The notes under the pieces: model-generated
What the model saw: only the letters and a program-made list of their open reading frames with translations
The model's database searches: none
What the model was told of the DNA's origin: nothing
Part shown: piece after piece, positions 14,667-33,385 of the stretch
How the letters are laid out: every line of letters starts with the position of its first letter
Position numbering within the stretch: position 1 is the stretch's first letter
Assembly: GCA_965207385.1 (NCBI GenBank)
Contig: CBDBLZ010000005.1
Span: forward strand, 8,276 to 72,275
Direction: 5' to 3'
DNA: 64,000 bases
Source of the DNA: Rhodothermales bacterium
Lineage (GTDB): Bacteria > Bacteroidota > Rhodothermia > Rhodothermales > Bin80
Made by a program: the position numbers and the translations under genes

Positions 14667-15476
14667 TCATGATCCGTATTTCAGTTCGGCAGCAAATTCG
14701 CGCAGTTTCTGGCAGCGCCCCTGCAGGGTGAGCGATTCGTCGTGCCACAACTGCTCTATTCGCGTAACAAGGGCGGAGCCCACGATGAAGCCGTCCGCGT
14801 GGCGGCACACGCGTGCGGCGTCTGCGTGGGTCTTGATGCCAAAGCCCACCATAAGAGGGTTCCTGCGTACAAGGCTGCGCGCATGGCGAAGGTAGCGCTC
14901 TACCTGTTCCATCCGGTTCGTCAGCCTGATCCCGGTCACTCCTGTAACGGATACGGCATAAACAAAGCCGGAGGAGCGTGCATCGATCTCGCGGATGCGG
15001 TCCGGCGGAGTATTGGGCGCCAGGAGGTAAACGATGCCCAGGCCGGCCTCGGCTGCGTGTCCGGCCAGCACGCCGTCTTCCTCTGGAGGAAGATCCGGAA
15101 TGATCAGGCCTGCCACGCCGGCGTGGCAGGCCGCCATGCAGAATTGCCGGGGCCCGTAGCTCAGGATGGGATTGATGTACCCCATGAGCAACAGCGGCGC
15201 AGCATGACGCTGCGTGAACGCGTGCGCGAACCGGAAAGTGTCTTGCATGCGGACTCCGCCGGATAGTGCGCGCGCGCTCGAGCGCTGAATGGGCGGGCCT
15301 TCCGCAAGGGGGTCGCTAAAGGGCATGCCGAGCTCGACAAAGTCGGCGACCTCGCCCAGCGCATCCAGTACAGGCGGCGTGTCGGCCATGCTGGGGAAGC
15401 CGCTGGTAAGAAACAGCCCCATGGACTTTTCTCCACGCGCGCAAGCCGCCCGAATCCTTTGCGACAGTCTAGACAC
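14667..15476 (-). CDS. trpA: Tryptophan synthase alpha chain
   Basis: ELGMPFSDPLAEGPPIQ, GYINPI and VSVTGVTG motifs. Start abuts the trpB stop. Confidence 0.92.
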   Translation of the reverse strand: MSRLSQRIRAACARGEKSMGLFLTSGFPSMADTPPVLDALGEVADFVELGMPFSDPLAEGPPIQRSSARALSGGVRMQDTFRFAHAFTQRHAAPLLLMGYINPILSYGPRQFCMAACHAGVAGLIIPDLPPEEDGVLAGHAAEAGLGIVYLLAPNTPPDRIREIDARSSGFVYAVSVTGVTGIRLTNRMEQVERYLRHARSLVRRNPLMVGFGIKTHADAARVCRHADGFIVGSALVTRIEQLWHDESLTLQGRCQKLREFAAELKYGS

Positions 15477-16658
15477 CTATGTTCCCGACTCAGTGATAGA
15501 CGCCATGTCCTTGTCTCCACGGCCTGAACAGTTCAGCACCACTACACCGCTTAGCCGGCCCGACAGCTTGGCCAGGGCCGCAACGGCATGGGCGGTTTCG
15601 AGCGCGGGGATAATGCCCTCCGTGGCTGCCAGGAGTCTGACCGCATCAAGCGCATCGGCGTCCGTTACGGCGTGGTACTCAACGCGGCCAAGATCCTTCA
15701 GGTAAGCGTGCTCGGGGCCCACGCCCGGATAATCCAGTCCAGCGGAGATAGAATGCGCCAGCTTGACCTGGCCGTCGCCGTCTTGTAGCAGGTAACTCAT
15801 CGCTCCATGGAGGACGCCGGGTGAACCGCGGCTGAGCGTAGCCGCGTGCCGCCCCGAAAGACCCTCTCCCGCGGCTTCCACGCCGATCAGGGCAACCCGG
15901 CCATCATCCATGTACGGAAAGAAAATCCCCATGGCATTCGAGCCGCCTCCCACGCAGGCTATGATAGCCTCGGGAGAAGGTTGTCCCTCGCAGTCCTGCA
16001 GCTGGCGCCGGGTCTCTTCGCCGATGACGCACTGGAAGGTGCGAACCAGTTCAGGGTAGGGATGCGGGCCGACAACAGAGCCGATGATGTAGAAAGTATC
16101 AGCGGGATTGGAAACCCAGTCCCGGATGGCTTCGCTGGTGGCGTCCTTGAGCGTCCGGCTGCCGCTGGAAACCGGGTTGACGGTCGCTCCCAGGAGCTGC
16201 ATCCGCTCCACATTGAGGCGCTGGCGCCGGGTGTCCTCCTCGCCCATGTAGACGACACACTTCAGCCCGAATTTGGCAGCTACAGTCGCCGTGGCCACGC
16301 CGTGCTGGCCGGCGCCTGTTTCCGCGATGATGCGCGATTTTCCCATTCGCCGCGCCAGCAGAATCTGGCCGACCGTGTTGTTGATCTTGTGCGCGCCCGT
16401 GTGACACAGATCTTCGCGTTTCAGGTAGATCCTGGGTCCGCCCAGCCTTGCCGTCAACCGGTCCGCAAACGTAAGCGGGGTCGGGCGTCCAACATACTGT
16501 GTCAGGATGTCATGGTACTCGGCCTGAAAGTCCTCCCGGGGCCAGTACTCCCTGAAGGCAGCATCAAGCCTGGACAGTTCCGGGATCAGAATCTCCGGGA
16601 CGTAGGCCCCGCCGTAGGGACCGAAGCGACCGCTCTTGTCAGGAGCCCGGTATGCCAT
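15477..16658 (-). CDS. trpB: Tryptophan synthase beta chain
   Basis: [44 protein letters not shown]. Confidence 0.95.
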
Positions 16659-16661
16659 GCG

Positions 16662-17291
16662 TCAACCGCTGGAGCTGCTCTGAAAGACTGCCTCGACCAG
16701 GGCATAATCCTTCCTCCCAGGCGCGGTCTCCACCCCGCTGGACATGTCCAGGGCCCAGGGGCGCACCTGTCGCAGGGCATCCGAAATGTTGTGGGGACCA
16801 AGTCCGCCCGCGAGGAACACCGGGAATTCGCGGCAGATGGCGCCGGCCATCGACCACTCAAAGGTCTTGCCCGTCCCGCCGTGCAGCACCGGGTGATAGG
16901 TATCCAGAAGGAAGAAGTCTGCAACCTCGGCGAAAGCCTCCATTTGCGTGCGCAGCAGCACTTCCGTGCTGGTTTCCGCGACGCGGAAGGCCTTGATGAC
17001 GGGCGCACTTATTTCGGCGCAGTAAGGGGGCGGTTCCGCACCGTGCAGCTGAACCAGATCAAAGGATGCGACTTCCGCGGCGCGGTTGACGCTGTCTGCA
17101 TCTTCGTCGACAAAAACGCCCACGGTCTTTGCGCCGTGGAGCCAGGAGCGTATTTCACCCGCGAGCTCGGCAGGCACGAACCGCGGACTTCGCGGATACT
17201 GGATGAAGCCGAGATAGTCTGCCCCGGCGGCTGCACAGAAGCGAGCGTCCGCCAGATTGGTGATTCCGCAAATCTTGATCCTGTGGGCCAT
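16662..17291 (-). CDS. trpF: Phosphoribosylanthranilate isomerase
   Basis: IKICGITNLADA N-terminus, VQLHG, GGTGKTFEW, LAGGLGPHNI. Confidence 0.9.
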   Translation of the reverse strand: MAHRIKICGITNLADARFCAAAGADYLGFIQYPRSPRFVPAELAGEIRSWLHGAKTVGVFVDEDADSVNRAAEVASFDLVQLHGAEPPPYCAEISAPVIKAFRVAETSTEVLLRTQMEAFAEVADFFLLDTYHPVLHGGTGKTFEWSMAGAICREFPVFLAGGLGPHNISDALRQVRPWALDMSSGVETAPGRKDYALVEAVFQSSSSG

Positions 17292-17293
17292 CC

Positions 17294-18091
17294 CTATGCT
17301 GCCAGAGAGCGTGCCAGCTGGTTGCGCAGCTGTCGCAGGGCCGCGCCGCTGTCCCTTGCCACCATGAATGATTCTCCAATGAGCACGGCGTCAATGCCGC
17401 CGCGGTGGAGGTGTGCCAGTTCCGCGGCCGATCCCAGACCGCTCTCGGACACGCGGAGAATGCCGCGGGGCACATGGGAGAATACCCGAAGCGAATGATT
17501 GATGTCGACGGAGAAGGTCCTGAGATCGCGGTTGTTTACGCCGAGGATGGAGGTCATCGTGAAGTCCAGCTTGGCCAGCTCCTCCTGCGCATACACTTCC
17601 ACCAGGCACTCCAGTCCGAGCTCGGAGGCTGCAATCTGCAGCTCGGCCAGCTGCGTGCTTTCAAGTGCGGTCGCTATCAGCAGCACCGCGTCAGCACCAT
17701 AGGCTCGCGCCTCCAGGAGCTGGTAGGGATCCACTATGAAGTCCTTTCGGAGCAGGGGCAGGGAGGTGCTCTCGCGGGCCGCCGCAAGATCATCAAGGGA
17801 GCCCTCGAAATGACGCTCCTCCGTAAGAACACTTATAGCGGATGCGCCGGCCTCTTCGTAGGCAGCGGCAACGGCGACCGGGTCCGCGTCCGCGCGCAGC
17901 GGACCCTTTGACGGCGATGCCCGCTTGAATTCGGCAATGATGGACAGCCCTTCGGCGGCCAGCGCGAGGGCCAGCGACCGGGTGCGGCCGCGCTGCTGCG
18001 CCAGCTCAAGCAGAACCGCAGGACTCACTGCCTGCCTGCGCTGCTGAAGGCGCCGGCGCGTATCGCCAAGGATCTGCTGCAGGATGTTCAT
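17294..18091 (-). CDS. trpC: Indole-3-glycerol-phosphate synthase
   Basis: IIAEFKRASPSKG, LRKDFIVDPYQLLEARAYGADAVLLI, LGVNNRDLRTF. Confidence 0.92.
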   Translation of the reverse strand: MNILQQILGDTRRRLQQRRQAVSPAVLLELAQQRGRTRSLALALAAEGLSIIAEFKRASPSKGPLRADADPVAVAAAYEEAGASAISVLTEERHFEGSLDDLAAARESTSLPLLRKDFIVDPYQLLEARAYGADAVLLIATALESTQLAELQIAASELGLECLVEVYAQEELAKLDFTMTSILGVNNRDLRTFSVDINHSLRVFSHVPRGILRVSESGLGSAAELAHLHRGGIDAVLIGESFMVARDSGAALRQLRNQLARSLAA

Positions 18092-19101
18092 GCGTTCGAG
18101 CCTTCGCGCAGCCGCTCAAGACTGTCCCGCGCTGCTCCGGAATCGATGCTCTCCCTGGCAGCGGCAAAGCAGGCATCCAGGTCTGCGAAGCGCCCGCTGA
18201 CGCTGAGTCCGAAGGCACTGTTGAGCAGCACAACGTCCCGGCTGGGACCCGGTTTGCCATCGAGGATATCCCTGATAATGTCCGCGTTGGTGGCCGCGTC
18301 GCCTCCTTGCAGTGCCTTCAGGTTGCATCGCGAAAAACCGTATTCCTCCGGTCGAATGGTGAAGCGGTGGATCCCCGGCCTTCCGTCCACATGCTCGAAG
18401 GCTTCCGTGGCTTCGCACAGCGAAACCTCGTCCAGTCCGTCCCGGGCTGCCACGGCAATGACGTGTTTGGCCCCCAGGCGACCGAGGATGGTGGCCATGG
18501 TAGCGGCAGCGCGCGGACTGAAGGCCCCCACAAGCTGGCGCTTGATCTGTGCAGGATTGCACATCGGACCGAGAATATTGAAGCACGTCCGAACACGAAG
18601 AATGCGCCTGACGGGCGCGATGTGCCGCACCGCCGGGTGATACCGCACGGCAAACATGAAGCCGACACCCGCCGTCTCAAGACAATGCTGCACTTGTTCC
18701 GGTCCCAGGTCAATGGCCACGCCAAGTGCGTCCAGCACATCGGCCGATCCGCACTGGGAAGACACGCTGCGGTTGCCGTGCTTGGTGACCGTTACTCCGG
18801 CGCCTGCGCAGACGAGCGCCGTGGCCGTGGAAATATTGAATGTGCCGAGACCATCTCCGCCCGTGCCGCACAGGTCTATGGCGTGAGCGTCGCTGCACTG
18901 CACCCTGACAGCATGCTCGCGCATCGCTACGGTCAGGCCGGTGAGTTCGTCAACGGTTTCTCCCCGCGCACGAATGGCCATCAGGAAGCCGGCCACCTCG
19001 CATGGATCGGCCTCGCCTTGCATCATGAGATGCATGGCCTCCTCTGCCTGGTCCGTGGTAAGCGTTTCCTGTCGTGACAGGATGGTCAGAAAAGCATTCA
19101 T
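18088..19101 (-). CDS. trpD: Anthranilate phosphoribosyltransferase
   Basis: DLCGTGGDGLGTFNISTA, KHGNRSVSSQCGSADVLEALG-type block. The internal ATG at 19101 forms an ATGA overlap with the trpG stop, and the 3' end has an ATGA overlap with the trpC start. Confidence 0.92.
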   Translation of the reverse strand: MNAFLTILSRQETLTTDQAEEAMHLMMQGEADPCEVAGFLMAIRARGETVDELTGLTVAMREHAVRVQCSDAHAIDLCGTGGDGLGTFNISTATALVCAGAGVTVTKHGNRSVSSQCGSADVLDALGVAIDLGPEQVQHCLETAGVGFMFAVRYHPAVRHIAPVRRILRVRTCFNILGPMCNPAQIKRQLVGAFSPRAAATMATILGRLGAKHVIAVAARDGLDEVSLCEATEAFEHVDGRPGIHRFTIRPEEYGFSRCNLKALQGGDAATNADIIRDILDGKPGPSRDVVLLNSAFGLSVSGRFADLDACFAAARESIDSGAARDSLERLREGSNA

Positions 19102-19697
19102 GAGGCGCTTACCGGTTCGGGGTTCCACTTGTCGACGAGAGCCACCCAGTTGGCTATGATCCGGGGTCCGGCGACCGTCAGTACGCTTTCCGGGTGGAAT
19201 TGTACGCCTTCGAGTGGCCACCGGCGGTGCCGGAGGCCCATTACCGTACCGTCCGGCGTTTCCGCGGAAACCTGGAGCATGGCCGGGACCGTGCCACGGT
19301 CTACGACCAGGGAGTGGTACCGGGTGGCCGTGAATTCCTGGTCAACGCCTTCGAAGATGGTATTGCCGTCGTGGCGAACCGCGCTCGTCTTGCCGTGCAT
19401 CAGGCTGGGGGCATATGTGATGGTGGCGCCGCTGGCCTCAGCGATTGCCTGGTGGCCGAGGCAGATGCCAAGCATCGGAGTCGCAGGGCCGAGATGCGCA
19501 ATGACATCCTTGCAGATTCCGGCATCATTCGGTCTTCCGGGCCCCGGAGATATAAGTATGCCATCCGGCCTCATGGCTTCGATATCGCGAAGGGAGAGCG
19601 CGTCGTTTCGACAGACCGTGACCTCGGAGTGGTATTGCCCGACGAGATGCACGAGGTTGTACGTAAAGGAGTCGTAGTTGTCCAGAACCAGTATCAT
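19098..19697 (-). CDS. trpG: Anthranilate synthase component II (glutamine amidotransferase)
   Basis: MILVLDNYDSFTYNLV, ILISPGPGRP, GICLGHQ, VQFHPES. The internal ATG at 19697 forms an ATGA overlap with the trpS stop. Confidence 0.9.
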   Translation of the reverse strand: MILVLDNYDSFTYNLVHLVGQYHSEVTVCRNDALSLRDIEAMRPDGILISPGPGRPNDAGICKDVIAHLGPATPMLGICLGHQAIAEASGATITYAPSLMHGKTSAVRHDGNTIFEGVDQEFTATRYHSLVVDRGTVPAMLQVSAETPDGTVMGLRHRRWPLEGVQFHPESVLTVAGPRIIANWVALVDKWNPEPVSAS

Positions 19698-20692
19698 GAC
19701 GGTATGCTGGTAAGCAGCCCGGTGGCTTCGCGCACTTTCTCCATGCAGGCTTCTGCCCGGGTTCGCGCCGCCAGGGCGCCCTGGCGGAGCACGTCCCATA
19801 CATAATCCGGTCGCTGCTCCAGCTTGCGCCGCCGCTCGCGTGCCTCGGCGAAGTAGGCCAGCACCAGTTGCTCAAGCTTCTTTTTTGCGTGGCCGTAGCC
19901 GTAGCCGCCGGCCAGATATGCCGAACGGAGTTCCGCCAGCGTTTCCGGATCCGCAAAGAGCTTCAGGAGCGCGAAGACATTATCCGTGTCCGGATTCTTG
20001 GGTGCTTCAAGCGGCGTTGAATCCGTAACAATGGCCCGGATGCGGCGCCTCAGCTGCTTGCCTTCGTCGAATATGCCGATCGTGTTGCGATAACTCTTGG
20101 ACATCTTGCGACCGTCAATGCCGGGCACAATCGCAACATCTTCGACGATATACGGCTCCGGCACGGGAAAAATGGGAGGATCGGCCGGATAGGCGGCATT
20201 GAAGCGCTGCGCGATGTCGCGCGTGATTTCGAGGTGCTGCTTCTGGTCCGCCCCGACAGGGACGAGGGTTCCGCCGTAAATGAGAATGTCGGAGGCCTGC
20301 AGAACCGGATAATTGAGCAGCCCCGCGTTTGCACTGAGTCCCTGTGCAACCTTGTCCTTGTAGGATACCCCCTTTTCAAGCTGCGAGACCGGAGTGAGGC
20401 AGAAAAAGATCCAGGTCAGCTCCTGGAGCTGCGGCACGTCGCTCTGCAGAAACAGGTTGGCCTTGTCCGGGTCGAGGCCCAGTGCAAGGTACGTGACGGC
20501 CGCATCCAGGGTATGCCGCCTCAGCGTATCCGCATCGCGCATGGTAGTCATCGCGTGGTAGTTCACGATGAAATAGAAGGACTGCTGCCGTCCCTGCATG
20601 GAGATATGCTGGCGGATGGCGCCAAAGTAGTTGCCTATGTGCAGGGCTCCAGAGGACTGGATGCCCGAAACGACAACGGTGGGCGAATTCAT
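19694..20692 (-). CDS. trpS: Tryptophan--tRNA ligase
   Basis: Class I signature in GIQSSGALHIGNYFG (HIGH-type) and KMSKS (GRKMSKSY). The overall TrpRS layout lies between trpE and trpG on the same strand. Confidence 0.9.
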   Translation of the reverse strand: MNSPTVVVSGIQSSGALHIGNYFGAIRQHISMQGRQQSFYFIVNYHAMTTMRDADTLRRHTLDAAVTYLALGLDPDKANLFLQSDVPQLQELTWIFFCLTPVSQLEKGVSYKDKVAQGLSANAGLLNYPVLQASDILIYGGTLVPVGADQKQHLEITRDIAQRFNAAYPADPPIFPVPEPYIVEDVAIVPGIDGRKMSKSYRNTIGIFDEGKQLRRRIRAIVTDSTPLEAPKNPDTDNVFALLKLFADPETLAELRSAYLAGGYGYGHAKKKLEQLVLAYFAEARERRRKLEQRPDYVWDVLRQGALAARTRAEACMEKVREATGLLTSIPS

Positions 20693-20704: not shown

Positions 20705-21181
20705 CTATGATTGGCGGCGAAGCCGCAATTCTCTCACCGCGCCCCGTGCATGTTCGAGTCGAGCTTCCGCATTCTCTTCCAGCCTGGCCAGCACGGCTCG
20801 GGTGCGCATCTGGTGCTCGAATTGCCGCTCGCGTCTGAGCGCCTCCGCGTAGGCGCTTTCCAGATCCACTACGTCCAGCAGCGGAGCCGGACCCGTTGGC
20901 AGCGGATCGCGTGCCACGCCTGCATGGGCTGCAGCCCCGCAGCTGAGGATGGTCTCCGAGAGCTTGTCCGCATCCATGCGGGCCGTCTTGAGCAGCGCGG
21001 CCGATGACGCAGCCAGATCCGGGTCCTCGCATTTCTCGATGGCCAGATCCCAGGCGCGATTCAGTGCAATAAGCTGCTTGAGAAGCGGGTTGAGCCGGTC
21101 CGCTGTATCGGCTCGGGAGAGCGTGCGACCGGCCCATCCCTTCTTGAGAACGGCAGCCTTGATTTCCTTCAGAGGCATCAT
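20705..21181 (-). CDS. Hypothetical all-helical protein embedded in the trp operon
   Basis: 158-aa ORF with 12 nt to trpS and 29 nt from trpE. No motif recognised. The overlapping 253-aa ORF 20376..21137 is Arg/Pro/Gly-rich and was rejected. Confidence 0.5.
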   Translation of the reverse strand: MMPLKEIKAAVLKKGWAGRTLSRADTADRLNPLLKQLIALNRAWDLAIEKCEDPDLAASSAALLKTARMDADKLSETILSCGAAAHAGVARDPLPTGPAPLLDVVDLESAYAEALRRERQFEHQMRTRAVLARLEENAEARLEHARGAVRELRLRRQS

Positions 21182-21210
21182 AACGTAGGGGTCAAAGGGT
21201 CCAAGAGGCG

Positions 21211-22695
21211 CTACAGGAGCCCCTCGGCTGCCATGAGCAGCGCCATTTTCAGGGCGCGCGCCTTGTTTTCCGTTTCCTCAAATTCGCGCGAGGGCTGGCT
21301 GTCTGCCACAATCCCCGCACCAGCCTGGATGAAAATATCATTGCCGCGCACGACCATCGTGCGAATGGCAATGCAGGTGTCCATATTGCCGGAGAAATCC
21401 ACGTAGCCTACGGCGCCTGCATAGACGCCCCGCTTTGCAGGCTCCAGATCATCAATGATCTCCATGGCGCGCACCTTGGGAGCGCCGGAGACCGTTCCGG
21501 CAGGGAAGCAGGCCTTCAGCACGTCCATGGCGCCCAGATCGGAGCAAAGCGTGCCGGAGACTGCGCTGACTATGTGCATGACGTGGGAGTAGCGTTCGAT
21601 ATAGGCGTAGCGGTCGACTTGCACGGACCCGGTCTTGCACACCCGGCCCAGATCATTGCGGCCAAGATCAACAAGCATGAGATGTTCCGCCCGTTCCTTG
21701 TGATCCTGCAGCAATTCCTGTGCCAACGCTTCGTCCTCCTCCGGACTGGCCCCTCGTGCTCGCGTTCCGGCAATCGGCAGCAGCTCTGCCTTGCCGTCTT
21801 CGACACGCACCAGCACCTCGGGTGAGGAGCCGATCAGCGTTACCCTGCCAAAATCGAGATAGAACAGGTAGGGCGACGGGTTTATCTGCCGGAGAGCACG
21901 GTAGAGATTGAAGGGATCACCTCCAAACGAGAGCGTGAAGCGCTGTGACAGGACGACCTGGAATATGTCTCCCTCGAAGATGTGGCGCTTGGCCCGACGC
22001 ACGGCGTCCTCGAAGTCCTCCCGCCTGAAGTTGGATGCCATCCTGTCGCCGGAAAGTGTTACGGGGGCGGGTGCATTTATGGAGGCTCGCAATTCCCGCT
22101 CCAGAAGGGACAAGCGCCGCGAGGCGTCCTGGTACGCCTCTTCCACCTGCGTGTCGGCACTAAGGAACGCACTGGACATCAGCACAAGCTGGTGCCGCAC
22201 CTGATCGAACGCCACGACGGTATCGTAGAAGCACCATACGGCATCCGGCAGATCCAGGTCATCCTGCGGCATATCCGGCAGCCGCTCGATCAGGCGGACA
22301 TTGTCATAGCCAAAAAACCCTACAGCGCCGCAGGTGAACCTTGGCAGCCCCGGCAGGCGCACTTCCCTGTACGCATCCAGGTAGTGCTGCAGTACCTCGA
22401 AAATGTCGCCGGCCGGCGCATTCTCGTCGCGTGCGCCGCGAACGCAAATGCCGTCCTCCGTTGCCTCCAGTATGCGATAGGGATTCTTGCCGAGGAAGGA
22501 GAATCGACCCAGCTTGTCTCCTCCCTCGACGCTTTCAAGAAGAAAGGCAAACGATCCCCTCTCCCGGAGCAGCAGGAACGCGCTCACCGGCGTCAGCAGA
22601 TCGGCGCTGAGCCGCTTGGTGACAGGCACCAGGAAGCGTACGCTGCCGCGCGCGCGCTCCTTTTTCACCAGCTTGCTGAATTCGCGAAACGTCAT
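21211..22695 (-). CDS. trpE: Anthranilate synthase component I
   Basis: LLESVEGG, PSPYLFYL, GTRARG, and the C-terminal GAGIVADS block. The start was set at the ATG at 22695, because the ORF-track GTG at 22713 lies inside the attenuator hairpin. Confidence 0.92.
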   Translation of the reverse strand: MTFREFSKLVKKERARGSVRFLVPVTKRLSADLLTPVSAFLLLRERGSFAFLLESVEGGDKLGRFSFLGKNPYRILEATEDGICVRGARDENAPAGDIFEVLQHYLDAYREVRLPGLPRFTCGAVGFFGYDNVRLIERLPDMPQDDLDLPDAVWCFYDTVVAFDQVRHQLVLMSSAFLSADTQVEEAYQDASRRLSLLERELRASINAPAPVTLSGDRMASNFRREDFEDAVRRAKRHIFEGDIFQVVLSQRFTLSFGGDPFNLYRALRQINPSPYLFYLDFGRVTLIGSSPEVLVRVEDGKAELLPIAGTRARGASPEEDEALAQELLQDHKERAEHLMLVDLGRNDLGRVCKTGSVQVDRYAYIERYSHVMHIVSAVSGTLCSDLGAMDVLKACFPAGTVSGAPKVRAMEIIDDLEPAKRGVYAGAVGYVDFSGNMDTCIAIRTMVVRGNDIFIQAGAGIVADSQPSREFEETENKARALKMALLMAAEGLL

Positions 22696-22697
22696 TC

Positions 22698-22735
22698 CAA
22701 AGAAAAAGCCCACTGCTATTGTGAAGCAGCGGGCT
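22698..22735 (-). terminator. trp attenuator: intrinsic terminator immediately upstream of trpE
   Basis: The minus-strand RNA is AGCCCGCUGCU (22735-22725), loop UCACAAU, AGCAGUGGGCU (22717-22707), then UUUUCUUU. That is an 11-bp stem with one G-U pair, and the U tract ends 3 nt before the trpE ATG. Confidence 0.75.
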
Positions 22736-22776
22736 CGTCATCCTGTGCAATCGATATCTTATGCCGCGCCCGCCGC
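22726..22776 (-). promoter_or_regulatory. Candidate antiterminator pairing of the trp attenuator
   Basis: GCGGCGGGC (22776-22768, the last codons of the leader ORF) is complementary to GCCCGCUGC (22734-22726), the 5' arm of the terminator: 9 bp with one G-U pair. The two structures are mutually exclusive. Confidence 0.55.
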
Positions 22777-22827
22777 CGGTGTGCGGAAAGGCCACCAATT
22801 CCGATATGCGCTCAATTTGCAAGTCAC
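22759..22827 (-). CDS. trpL: Putative trp leader peptide with tandem Trp codons
   Basis: Reading from the GTG at 22827 (alternative TTG at 22815) gives (M)TCKLSAYRNWWPFRTPAAGAA then stop. The TGG TGG pair is at 22797-22792 and the TAA at 22761-22759, 23 nt before the terminator stem. The start codon is uncertain. Confidence 0.55.
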   Translation of the reverse strand: MTCKLSAYRNWWPFRTPAAGAA

Positions 22828-22833
22828 GCGCGC

Positions 22834-22862
22834 AATATACAGCGCCAAATGCCGGGAGGCAA
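22834..22862 (-). promoter_or_regulatory. Candidate sigma-70-type promoter of the trp operon
   Basis: On the minus strand: TTGCCT (22862-22857), a 17-nt spacer, then TATATT (22839-22834). The predicted start lies near the leader ORF start. This is a motif match only. Confidence 0.35.
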
Positions 22863-23245
22863 TGCCATTGCAAATAATGAGGAATGGTTTTCCCGCGTAG
22901 CGTACCTTACGCACGTGCTTGCCCTGGAGGCAAGGCTGAGCCGGCCGGGCGAGCTTGCTGAATTGACCAGCGCACAGCGCAGTTCTCATGCCGCATAGCA
23001 CGGTTCCGGACCTGGGAGTTGTCCCGTTCTCTTCGGGAATGCCGGTGCAATTCCCGGGTGCGATGCGCGCTCCCGGCAAGAATGGCCTGGCTGTCGGCAT
23101 AGCTTGCGGCAAGCGCGCCCGGCCGGGCTCAGCGGGTCGATTCCATACTGAATGGCGTGTGTCACCTGCTCACGCCAATCCACCCGCCAGCGAGATCAAT
23201 TCCAGTTATACGTTCTTCCTGCTAAAGCTCAACAGAAGGCAAGAC

Positions 23246-24460
23246 ATGGCAAGACAAGTGCACGCCCGCTCAGGGGCACTATTTCGTCCATCCGTTGAAC
23301 GGCTGCTGTTCATACTGGCGCTTCTGGGTATTCTTCTGACGGTACATCTCGCCTTTTGGTATGGCGGCAGAACCGCGGCCTCGGACCCGGTTTGCGGCGC
23401 GGGGTTCGACTGCCAGGCGGTTCTGGCGAGTGATCCGGCGCTCCTGGGCGTCTCCAGCACCTACTGGGGAATGCTCTTCTATGTGGCGGTTGCGGGCATG
23501 GGACTTGGAATTCTGATGCTGGGCGGAAAGGCCGTCAGCCTACTGTACACGTTGCGGCGCCTGGCTATTGGAGCAGGGTTTTTGTACTCCGCCTTCCTAA
23601 CGGCACTGCAGTACATGGTCTTGTCGGACCGCTGCCTGCTCTGCCTGATATCGGCTGCCATAGTTGCGTGCATGACGGCCGTGCTGGTGCTGGAAAAGCG
23701 CATTGGCAGCATGGCAGTTCCGGCGATAGCACGCGAATTGCGCTTCCGCGGGGTGCTGGCAGTGGCGGCCCTGGTAGTTGCCTTCGCGGACTTTGCCTAC
23801 TCGGGATCCAGTGCGGGCGAGGCCGAAATGGCGGTGCTCGGCCCGGTCGAGGCTGCAGATGCCTCGCAGTGCATATACGATCCGGACAGGCCGTACTTCG
23901 CCAATTTCGAAAGGCTGGTCGAAGACTACGATCCGATCGTCGGCAGGCCGGATGCGCCGGTTACCATCGTCGAGTTTCTGGATCCCAACTGCAATCACTG
24001 CAGGGACCTGCATCCGGTGATGCAGCGCCTTCTCAGTCTGCACAGGGACAACGCGCGCATCGTCTACAAGCCGGTCACGCTTGTCGGAGGCCCGTCCCAT
24101 TCCCTCGACGAGGTCATGGCCCTGTGGCTGGCCGAAGAAAGCGGCCGCTTTGAGGAAATGATGGAGCTGCAGTTTCGTCACCAGAACGGTTCGACGGGCC
24201 TCAGCGTGGACCGCCTGACGCAGTTCGCGGACGATATCGGCATGAACGCCGACAGGTTTCGGCAGGATTTGCTGGATGGCCGCCTCGCAAGCCGGGCGCG
24301 GCGCGTCATGCAGATCTTCAGCGGCCTGGGCCTGACGGGAGTACCGGCCGTCATTATCAACGGGCGCCTGATCCATAATTCGTCCCGTTCCATCGGATGC
24401 CTGAATTATTTTGTCGAGCAGGCAGTGGCTGCGGCAAATCAGCCTGGGCCAAATGAATAA
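23246..24460 (+). CDS. VKOR-domain membrane protein fused to a DsbA/thioredoxin-like domain
   Basis: The internal ATG at 23246 precedes the first TM helix. Loop cysteine pair CGAGFDC, a membrane-embedded CLLC in the multi-TM N-terminal half, and CNHC ([14 protein letters not shown]) in the soluble C-terminal half. Confidence 0.75.
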
Positions 24461-31617: not shown

Positions 31618-31690
31618 GCTGGCGTAGCTCAACCGGTAGAGCAGCTGATTTGTAATCAGCAGGTTGGGGGTTCGAGTCCCTTCGCCAGCT
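31618..31690 (+). tRNA. tRNA-Thr (anticodon UGU)
   Basis: Cloverleaf read by eye: acceptor GCTGGCG/CGCCAGC, D arm GCTC..GAGC, anticodon stem GCTGA/TCAGC with loop TT-TGT-AA, T arm GGGGG-TTCGAGT-CCCTT. Confidence 0.9.
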
Positions 31691-31760
31691 CTTCACGTTA
31701 AATTCGCTGGCCCTGTTGGCACTGCACCCCTGATGGCCCATATAACCATGCTGCGATGAC

Positions 31761-31842
31761 GGGCAGGTACCCAAGCGGTCAACGGGGGCAGACTGTAAAT
31801 CTGCTGGCTAAGCCTTCGGAGGTTCGAATCCTTCCCTGCCCA
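31761..31842 (+). tRNA. tRNA-Tyr (anticodon GUA), long variable arm
   Basis: Acceptor GGGCAGG/CCTGCCC, anticodon stem GCAGA/TCTGC with loop CT-GTA-AA, a long variable arm, T arm GGAGG-TTCGAAT-CCTTC. Confidence 0.9.
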
Positions 31843-31883
31843 CCCATACGAACTGGAACACTTGCCCCAAGCATCCGGGCGAT

Positions 31884-31956
31884 GCGGGAGTAGCTCAGTT
31901 GGTAGAGCATCAGCCTTCCAAGCTGAGGGTCGCGAGTTCGAATCTCGTCTCCCGCT
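31884..31956 (+). tRNA. tRNA-Gly (anticodon UCC)
   Basis: Acceptor GCGGGAG/CTCCCGC, anticodon stem TCAGC/GCTGA with loop CT-TCC-AA, T arm GCGAG-TTCGAAT-CTCGT. Confidence 0.9.
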
Positions 31957-32001
31957 CCTTTGATGCCGGTTCCCCGGAGCCGCACATAGGGTTTCGATCC
32001 T

Positions 32002-32076
<75 letters not shown>

Positions 32077-32108
32077 GAACATTCTTGTACAATAGGCGAG
32101 CATAGGAC

Positions 32109-33299
<1,191 letters not shown>

Positions 33300-33309
33300 C
33301 AGCCGAAAA

Positions 33310-33385
33310 ACGGGCGTAGCTCAACTGGCAGAGCGGCGGTCTCCAAAACCGCAGGTTGTGGGTTCAAGTCCTACCGCCCGTGCCA
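33310..33385 (+). tRNA. tRNA-Trp (anticodon CCA), CCA encoded
   Basis: Acceptor ACGGGCG/CGCCCGT, anticodon stem GCGGT/ACCGC with loop CT-CCA-AA, T arm GTGGG-TTCAAGT-CCTAC, then GCCA. Confidence 0.9.

Follow-up and report, generated by a model that had tools for sequence, protein, structure and literature searches.

The region upstream of trpE was examined in a 64,000-nucleotide (nt) stretch of a Rhodothermales bacterium genome (contig CBDBLZ010000005.1, positions 8,276 to 72,275; the whole stretch is referred to below as the window), in which the minus strand encodes a tryptophan operon of the order trpE-orfX-trpS-trpGDCFBA. As read from the sequence, the leader of this operon is very probably a ribosome-mediated transcription attenuator that senses charged tRNA-Trp and controls all of these genes. 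An initial annotation of the region had proposed a classical trp attenuator, made up of a leader open reading frame (ORF) with tandem Trp codons and of alternative antiterminator and terminator hairpins. Sequence elements, geometry, conservation, and covariation were computed here; translation of the leader ORF, the transcription start site (TSS), termination, and the response to tryptophan are what we infer. The element is real and uncatalogued, and its mechanism is the classical one, already predicted for Bacteroidetes, so that established knowledge is not overturned. Modestly novel are the probable leaderless nature of the leader ORF and the likely co-regulation of trpS and orfX.

Alternative structures of the trpE leader

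The leader comprises the following features:

22857..22862, minus strand: -35 box TTGCCT of the predicted leader promoter (promoter consensus scan)
22834..22839, minus strand: -10 box TATATT (promoter consensus scan), ending exactly 6 nt before the GTG at 22827
22759..22827, minus strand: leader ORF (trpL-like), GTG TCKLSAYRNWWPFRTPAAGAA TAA, 22 codons plus stop, probably leaderless
22792..22797, minus strand: tandem Trp codons TGG TGG, regulatory codons 11 and 12 (direct sequence reading)
22783..22797, minus strand: segment 1, the Trp codons and downstream bases able to pair with segment 2 as an anti-antiterminator or pause hairpin (folding)
22762..22778, minus strand: segment 2, the 5' strand of the antiterminator, within the leader ORF, with its core GGCGGCGGGC at 22777-22768
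22725..22736, minus strand: segment 3, the 5' arm of the terminator, common to the antiterminator (hairpin search, folding)
22706..22717, minus strand: segment 4, the 3' arm of the terminator (hairpin search, folding; covariation)
22699..22707, minus strand: U-tract UUUUUCUUU, the first two U of which double as the last two stem pairs and the end of which lies 3 nt before the trpE ATG

When transcript numbering is started at G22827, the Trp codons fall at nt 31-36, segment 2 at 51-60, the stop codon at 67-69, segment 3 at 92-103, and segment 4 at 111-122. All coordinates given by the initial annotation were found to be correct on the minus strand, and direct reading of the sequence bore out its short ORF. 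The C-terminal part of this ORF reads ...Y R N W W P F R T P A A G A A and is encoded by TAT CGG AAT TGG TGG CCT TTC CGC ACA CCG GCG GCG GGC GCG GCA TAA, with TGG TGG at 22797-22792 and the TAA at 22761-22759. Added here to what had been noted before are a predicted promoter abutting the start codon, a plausible 1:2 hairpin that involves the Trp codons, and a conserved gene between trpE and trpS.

The G+C-rich hairpin that shares its 5' arm with the antiterminator, annotated as 11 bp at 22735-22707, was recovered as a stem of 12 pairs (22736-22706), 7 of them G-C, closed by a loop of 7 nt. Folded alone, it reaches -23.1 kcal/mol with a z-score of -4.67, none of 200 shuffles folding as well, and its sequence has no second copy in the window. 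Next come UUUUUCUUU, which reaches to 22699, then GGA, and then the trpE ATG at 22695, as had been claimed; this start is backed by the conserved M-T-F N terminus of homologues. The competing pairing also stood up to inspection, GCGGCGGGC (22776-22768) being complementary over 9 bp to GCCCGCUGC (22734-22726) with one G.U pair, and RNAfold lengthened it to 10 contiguous pairs with flanking pairs. The resulting duplex of segments 2 and 3 in the window (-26.6 kcal/mol, z -2.7) pairs with the entire 5' arm of the terminator and is the minimum free energy structure once segment 4 is left out. In the window, segment 2 begins 14-15 nt past the Trp codons and stops 1 nt short of the end of the stop codon.

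Folding of the leader with a 30-nt ribosome footprint masked supported the proposal that a stalled ribosome leads to the antiterminator and a ribosome at the stop codon to the terminator. When the A site was set to the first Trp codon and the transcript ended before segment 4, the sole strong structure to form was the 2:3 antiterminator (-23.4 kcal/mol). When it was moved to the stop codon, the mask covered segment 2, the antiterminator was absent, and the 3:4 terminator was present in the minimum free energy structure. At equilibrium, the full leader favors the terminator state (-47.2 versus -38.8 kcal/mol), so the choice between the two states has to be made kinetically, as the classical model also has it.

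The window was also scanned for other attenuator-like terminators, the strongest of which (8551, plus strand) was set aside as the terminator of the preceding ExbD-like gene.

Conservation and covariation among related leaders

To place the leader in a comparative frame, trpE upstream regions were taken from 80 fetched loci, of which 44 from the Rhodothermales and Balneolales had usable upstream sequence. Conservation and covariation in relatives had been proposed as a check, and the outcome was favorable: a short ORF with WW or WWW, an antiterminator, and a terminator were found in 38 of the 44 regions, whereas a short ORF with clustered Trp codons was found in none of 34 trpE upstream regions from the Thermodesulfobacteriota ("Deltaproteobacteria"), Acidobacteriota, and Caldilineaceae. 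The close relatives of the TrpE in the window all belong to the Rhodothermales, Salinibacteraceae, or Balneolales, and the protein is 96% identical to TrpE of an uncultured Rhodothermaceae metagenome-assembled genome. The window was assigned to a member of the Rhodothermaceae (Bacteroidota sensu lato).

The 38 related leaders and that of the window (39 in all) have ORFs of 16-32 codons with 2-5 Trp codons arranged as WW, WWW, or W-x-WW, three Trp codons being present in 22 of the 39. The peptide sequence drifts freely among them (e.g. VTCKLSAYRNWWPFRTPAAGAA, MTTNRTYFGFWWWHPVHAAGRSSVLA, and MIDKDSVTSMRWWLWRPFSRVESPWYA), yet all of them keep the frame, the Trp cluster, and a cluster-to-stop distance of mostly 10-16 codons. 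All 39 terminators fold at -17 to -28 kcal/mol and are followed by a U-tract of at least 5 U, with the hairpin lying 7-94 nt upstream of trpE in the relatives. Segment 2 typically begins 7-13 nt after the Trp cluster and ends 0-17 nt from the stop codon, where a ribosome that has reached this codon would cover its end. Segment 2 spans the full terminator 5' arm in most leaders of the Rhodothermaceae-like type, that of the window included; in the Salinibacteraceae it covers 4-13 of the 9-13 nt of this arm, and the register of the antiterminator is shifted (GGGUCGAGAGCC with GGCUCUGGACCC) while still overlapping the terminator arm. The mean energy of the 2:3 duplex was -25.7 kcal/mol when a leader's own segments were used, compared with -21.0 kcal/mol for segments combined across loci.

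Covariation was counted on fixed-offset segments anchored on the CCC/GGG core and aligned without gaps; a MAFFT alignment of the leaders, in which the terminator 5' arm was out of register, was not used for the pair counts. The antiterminator was paired in 80% of cells, with both sides changed in 9 of 12 pairs, and the terminator in 88%, with both sides changed in 7 of 12; for each helix none of 500 shuffles reached these values, a generous control because the sequences are related. When the partner columns were slid by 1-3 positions as a control, pairing fell to 31-51%. Core position 3 covaries three ways, G occurring with C or U in both helices and A with U in both. Matching changes in segment 2 and the 3' arm are seen in L039 (CCCGCCGUCUC), in L011 and L016 (CCCACUGUUC), and in L043 and L046 (CCCGCUUC).

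Hairpins that pair segments 1 and 2 have a mean z-score of -0.3 to -1.2 across the loci. A hairpin of this type is the RNAalifold consensus in 14 Salinibacteraceae leaders, where it is invariant and shows no covariation; as modeled, an anti-antiterminator role for it is plausible but unproven.

Two smaller sequence preferences were seen around the Trp cluster. The base after the last TGG of the cluster is C in 35 of the 39 leaders (UGG-C; 22792-22791 in the window), whether P, H, R, S, or Q follows, which could reflect a constraint from codon context or from RNA pairing. In 29 of 39 leaders, compared with 15% expected, the cluster is preceded at a distance of 8-27 nt by a CAYAY motif that is often translated as His-Thr; the copy in the window is CATAT (22804-22808), within GCGCATATCGG. 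The motif could pair with GAUAU just past the stop codon in the window and so form the base of a long 1:2 hairpin; alternatively, it may be a mark of common descent.

Among the remaining loci, L032-L036 have in common a conserved GCCTTAAT...AAGGC hairpin (at about 2400-2500), after which come the palindrome CGAAATTTCG and a run of T. These elements, some 50-100 nt ahead of trpE, may belong to another type of regulator or may simply be terminator and promoter for an upstream gene on the same strand.

Mechanism, start of the leader transcript, and rival explanations

As proposed here, transcription would initiate from a sigma-70-like promoter, TTGCCT-17-TATATT, at or a few nt from the GTG at 22827, and a ribosome would load on the 5'-terminal start codon independently of a Shine-Dalgarno (SD) sequence. 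When charged tRNA-Trp is low, the ribosome would stall at codons 11-12 (UGG UGG) and cover segment 1, leaving segment 2 (22777-22768) free to pair with segment 3 (22736-22725) while segment 4 has yet to be transcribed; the terminator would be barred and RNA polymerase would enter trpE. When charged tRNA-Trp is ample, the ribosome would reach the UAA at 22761-22759 and cover segment 2, allowing segments 3 and 4 to form the 12-bp hairpin with its U-tract, and transcription would end at about 22699, just before the trpE ATG. A shortage of tryptophanyl-tRNA synthetase (TrpRS) would also lower charged tRNA-Trp and so induce the operon. Because trpS lies in the same operon, the circuit would steady the level of charged tRNA and not that of tryptophan alone, placing TrpRS under negative feedback from the charging level.

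Several results count against this reading. In the window, the 1:2 hairpin (transcript nt 31-45 with 52-66, -15.6 kcal/mol) has a z-score of -0.09, no better than shuffles, and the fold of the whole leader (z -1.7) does not rise above shuffles, as expected at about 60% G+C; both scores were set aside as uninformative at this composition. All folding was carried out at 37 °C, whatever the growth temperature of the host. The truncated leader favors the antiterminator at equilibrium when no ribosome is present, and the default state therefore depends on kinetics. Six of the 44 related loci (L032, L033, L034, L036, L040, and L042) have no WW leader. Because the helix core (CCCGCUGC / GCAGYGGG) shows strong conservation, only a minority of positions contribute to the covariation; the register of the segments was moreover anchored on predicted pairs, which favors the structure somewhat.

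The frequency of TGGTGG, which occurs 59 times on the two strands of the window, together with the ease with which G+C-rich RNA folds by chance, would also suit a coincidence of a WW ORF and an ordinary terminator. Chance co-occurrence is excluded by the comparative data rather than by the statistics of the window: the arrangement recurs in related loci and is absent from unrelated ones, and both helices covary. The terminator also serves no preceding gene, because the upstream neighbor is divergent and no gene on the same strand stands in need of one. Coincidence is effectively refuted on these grounds. Trp operons of other phyla use TRAP or a T-box, and the leader ORF has no SD-like sequence before it; a switch worked by a TRAP-like protein, by uncharged tRNA, or by a small molecule, with the WW ORF incidental, was accordingly considered. 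Rfam 15 was searched at gathering thresholds, with permissive runs up to E 10 around the leader, and gave no match to the T-box (RF00230) in the window at the gathering score, nor to the T-box or another riboswitch up to E 10 around the leader. The 130-nt leader contains only two GAG triplets and thus no TRAP site, for which the Bacillus-type criterion is 9-11 (G/U)AG triplets at a spacing of 2-3 nt that overlap the antiterminator. The frame, start position, Trp cluster, and position of the stop codon relative to segment 2 are all kept while the peptide drifts, which only translation explains, and a switch of this kind is highly improbable. Marginally less so, and still very unlikely, is that the hairpin acts mainly on translation by blocking access of the 30S subunit to trpE until the alternative pairing opens the site, with termination secondary or absent. 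The hairpin does end 10 nt before the trpE AUG, with the U-tract 3 nt from it and no SD sequence, and readthrough transcripts could refold into the terminator state, which is the ground state of the full leader. The distance from hairpin to trpE varies widely in the relatives, however, and hairpin and U-tract are nevertheless always kept; occlusion may supplement termination in the window, but the conserved function must be a different one.

More weight attaches to the question of where the leader transcript starts. The predicted promoter has 9 of 12 matches to the sigma-70-like consensus, and in every one of the 39 leaders a TTGnnn-N16-18-TAnnnT motif stops 6-10 nt short of the start codon, a count slightly favored because the start was chosen wherever several candidates existed. 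The spacer is 17 nt in 35 of the 39, and the same motif precedes only 0.32% of all ATG and GTG positions in the same sequences. The start codon is GTG in the window and in L001 and L002 (the three closest genomes, for which it is the sole in-frame start in common) and ATG elsewhere, the ATG sitting at the same distance from the promoter as the GTG of these three. Given a gap of 6-10 nt between -10 box and start codon throughout the 39 leaders, this ORF is probably leaderless, starting at or a few nt from the 5' end of the transcript, and promoter spacing would place the TSS at or next to G22827.

It could instead be that the attenuator works as described but that the TSS lies further upstream and the leader ORF is initiated on a leadered mRNA in the SD-independent manner typical of Bacteroidota. 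A weaker motif, TTGCCT-18-TAAGGT, with its -10 box ending at 22904, lies 70 nt upstream in the window, the only sequence in which it was sought. In E. coli, leaderless translation starts poorly at GTG, and use of this codon as a leaderless start would be unusual, which also counts against the leaderless reading itself. A published survey detected leaderless genes in just 1 of 37 Bacteroidetes/Chlorobi genomes (PMC3160421). The constant promoter spacing in all 39 leaders argues the other way, as does a TAnnTTTG box seen by eye 5-8 nt before the AUG of Bacteroid-trp seeds in part 1 of 2 of the RF01692 alignment. A leadered start is on balance unlikely, although it keeps appreciable weight.

Leaderless regulatory ORFs have precedents. 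The TSS of the D. deserti trpEGD leader is at -1 (PMC4007540), and mycobacterial leaderless polycysteine small ORFs function as attenuators (bioRxiv 10.1101/834739). As in the D. deserti trpEGD and aminoacyl-tRNA synthetase leaders and the mycobacterial small ORFs, where the TSS is at 0 or -1, the regulatory ORF of the window would stand at the 5' end of the transcript, is rich in the cognate codon, and lies upstream of genes for amino acid biosynthesis or an aminoacyl-tRNA synthetase. Unlike those cases, in which the TSS was mapped experimentally, the TSS here is taken from promoter spacing, and the phylum is different; the mycobacterial case may moreover work via translation coupling or Rho, unlike the intrinsic terminator of the window.

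Attenuation needs prompt loading of ribosomes, and these leaders offer a natural test case for it in bacteria that do not use SD sequences; the spacing of promoter and start codon suggests leaderless initiation as an answer. A broader reading, to which we would give slightly less than even weight, is that the Trp leader peptide of the Rhodothermales, and probably of the Bacteroidota generally including the Bacteroid-trp motif, is read from a leaderless transcript with its first nucleotide in the start codon, that the same attenuator sets the levels of the apparently housekeeping TrpRS and of the helical orfX product, and that this protein possibly has a new role in the metabolism of tryptophan or the handling of tRNA-Trp. 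If this is true, a lineage without SD recognition would obtain tight coupling of transcription and translation by loading ribosomes on the nascent 5' end.

Nearly all Salinibacteraceae leaders (L018-L041) also carry a conserved GAATTTCAAA(C/T)C about 15-25 nt upstream of the -35 box, at the position of which the window has the AT-rich stretch CATTATTTGCAAT. The conserved element could serve as an UP element or bind a transcription factor.

Relation to known attenuators and operon context

At the Rfam 15 gathering thresholds, no leader match was obtained in the window or in 20 related loci. RF00513 (Trp_leader) could be aligned end to end with the window leader at 21.0 bits (E 0.13) and reached 29.5, 15.3, and 20.0 bits in L043, L046, and L028, respectively, all below the threshold of 41 bits. 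RF01692 (Bacteroid-trp) gave no match up to E 10 in the window, L043, L046, or L028, and none at the gathering score in the 20 loci. The element operates like a classical trp attenuator but scores as a member of neither RF00513 nor RF01692. The leader-peptide attenuator is thereby extended to the Rhodothermales and Balneolales, where current Rfam models miss it, and annotators gain a cis-regulatory family in which the helices of about 40 sequences are defined.

The proteobacterial trpL leader (RF00513; the E. coli paradigm of Yanofsky) has the same layout, with a short ORF containing tandem UGG, segment pairings that follow one another as 1:2 (plausible for the window), 2:3, and 3:4, a G+C-rich terminator (GCCCGC...GCGGGC and a U-run) directly before trpE, and a stall site and stop codon placed so that the position of the ribosome picks the fold. 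Unlike in trpL, the ORF of the window has 22 codons instead of 14, lacks an SD sequence, and has a GTG start that abuts the promoter; the operon also contains trpS and orfX, and the phylum is different. The likeness may be convergent. The best RF00513 match was found in the Balneolales locus L043 (2380-2485; 29.5 bits, E 2.7e-4 in a 271-nt search) and spans the 1:2 hairpin and a GCCCGC/GCGGGC terminator, which points either to a terminator sequence reached by convergence or to distant homology.

The statement of the initial annotation that such attenuators have been predicted computationally in a few other phyla is right, a Bacteroid-trp leader having been predicted for Bacteroidetes in 2010. 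According to the supplement of Weinberg et al. (2010, PMC2864571), RF01692 is a predicted Trp peptide leader upstream of trpE or trpB in Bacteroidetes with at least 2 UGG codons, and its motif is described as "a loosely conserved hairpin". In part 1 of the 2 parts of its alignment (PMC2864571), recognizable accessions come from Bacteroides, Parabacteroides, Flavobacterium, and Cytophaga, and none was recognized from Salinibacter or Rhodothermus. The RF01692 sequences in that part are similar in peptide style (e.g. M..NTYWWW), and by eye their seeds have the Bacteroidetes -7 promoter box TAnnTTTG noted above and ACAUAU right before UGGUGG, comparable with CAYAY in the Rhodothermales leaders. 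Bacteroid-trp leader peptides may, judged by eye, also be read from leaderless transcripts. Unlike that motif as described there, the Rhodothermales and Balneolales leaders have about 60% G+C and a well-defined antiterminator and terminator. Common descent with RF01692 is possible, judging by these sequence likenesses.

The synthesis of TrpRS is tied to the level of charged tRNA-Trp elsewhere as well. In Firmicutes a T-box lies upstream of trpS, and trpS1 of Streptomyces coelicolor reportedly has a ribosome-mediated attenuator (Vecchione and Sello, 2010). Unlike in these cases, trpS of the window is internal to the biosynthetic operon, has no leader of its own, and shares one attenuator with trpEGDCFBA. 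TrpRS and the conserved orfX would be placed with the biosynthetic genes under tRNA-Trp sensing, which would steady charged tRNA rather than the amino acid only. The genes concerned are:

21211..22695, minus strand: trpE, anthranilate synthase component I (Pfam Chorismate_bind 2e-98, Anth_synt_I_N 1e-32)
20705..21181, minus strand: orfX, conserved helical protein of 158 amino acids, between trpE and trpS
19694..20692, minus strand: trpS, tryptophan-tRNA ligase (Pfam tRNA-synt_1b 2e-56; TIGR00233 trpS, 287 bits versus a cut-off of 177)
14667..19799, minus strand: trpG, trpD, trpC, trpF, trpB, and trpA (Pfam GATase, Glycos_transf_3, IGPS, PRAI, PALP, and Trp_syntA)
Maximal ORFs of these six, minus strand: trpG 19098-19799, trpD 18088-19221, trpC 17294-18091, trpF 16662-17291, trpB 15477-16658, trpA 14667-15476

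The presence of trpS in the operon, as initially annotated, is confirmed by its Pfam and TIGR00233 matches. The true starts of trpG and trpD probably lie downstream of the maximal ORF starts. The order trpE-orfX-trpS-trpG-trpD is kept throughout the Rhodothermaceae-like and Salinibacteraceae loci, and trpE-trpS-trpG without orfX is found in the Balneolales (L043 and L046) and in L028 and L029. No second attenuator was found before trpS in 17 loci, the gaps between orfX and trpS being short and featureless once N-terminal extensions of TrpS were counted.

Homologues of orfX are found at the same position in most Rhodothermales loci, with 33-86% identity. The protein has no Pfam or NCBIfam match at default thresholds and no relative in the Protein Data Bank by sequence; the sole family signal is a weak match to DUF2383 (E 0.02), and matches to sperm Na+/H+ exchanger (E 0.006) were dismissed as noise from helical composition. 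An AlphaFold2 model made without an alignment is all-helical and of low confidence (predicted local distance difference test score 67, predicted template modeling score 0.32). From its position, orfX may be a new Trp-related factor.

A promoter-like TTGGAC-16-TATGAT at 21177-21204 on the minus strand, the -10 box of which overlaps the orfX ATG, is likely a chance occurrence, although it could allow expression of trpS independently of trpE. Upstream of the leader, the divergent neighbor is a VKOR-thioredoxin/DsbA fusion gene (22988-24460, plus strand), which has a 160-bp intergenic region in common with the leader promoter. Further along the window, a cluster of five tRNA genes lies at 31618-33382 on the plus strand (Rfam tRNA, 56-75 bits).

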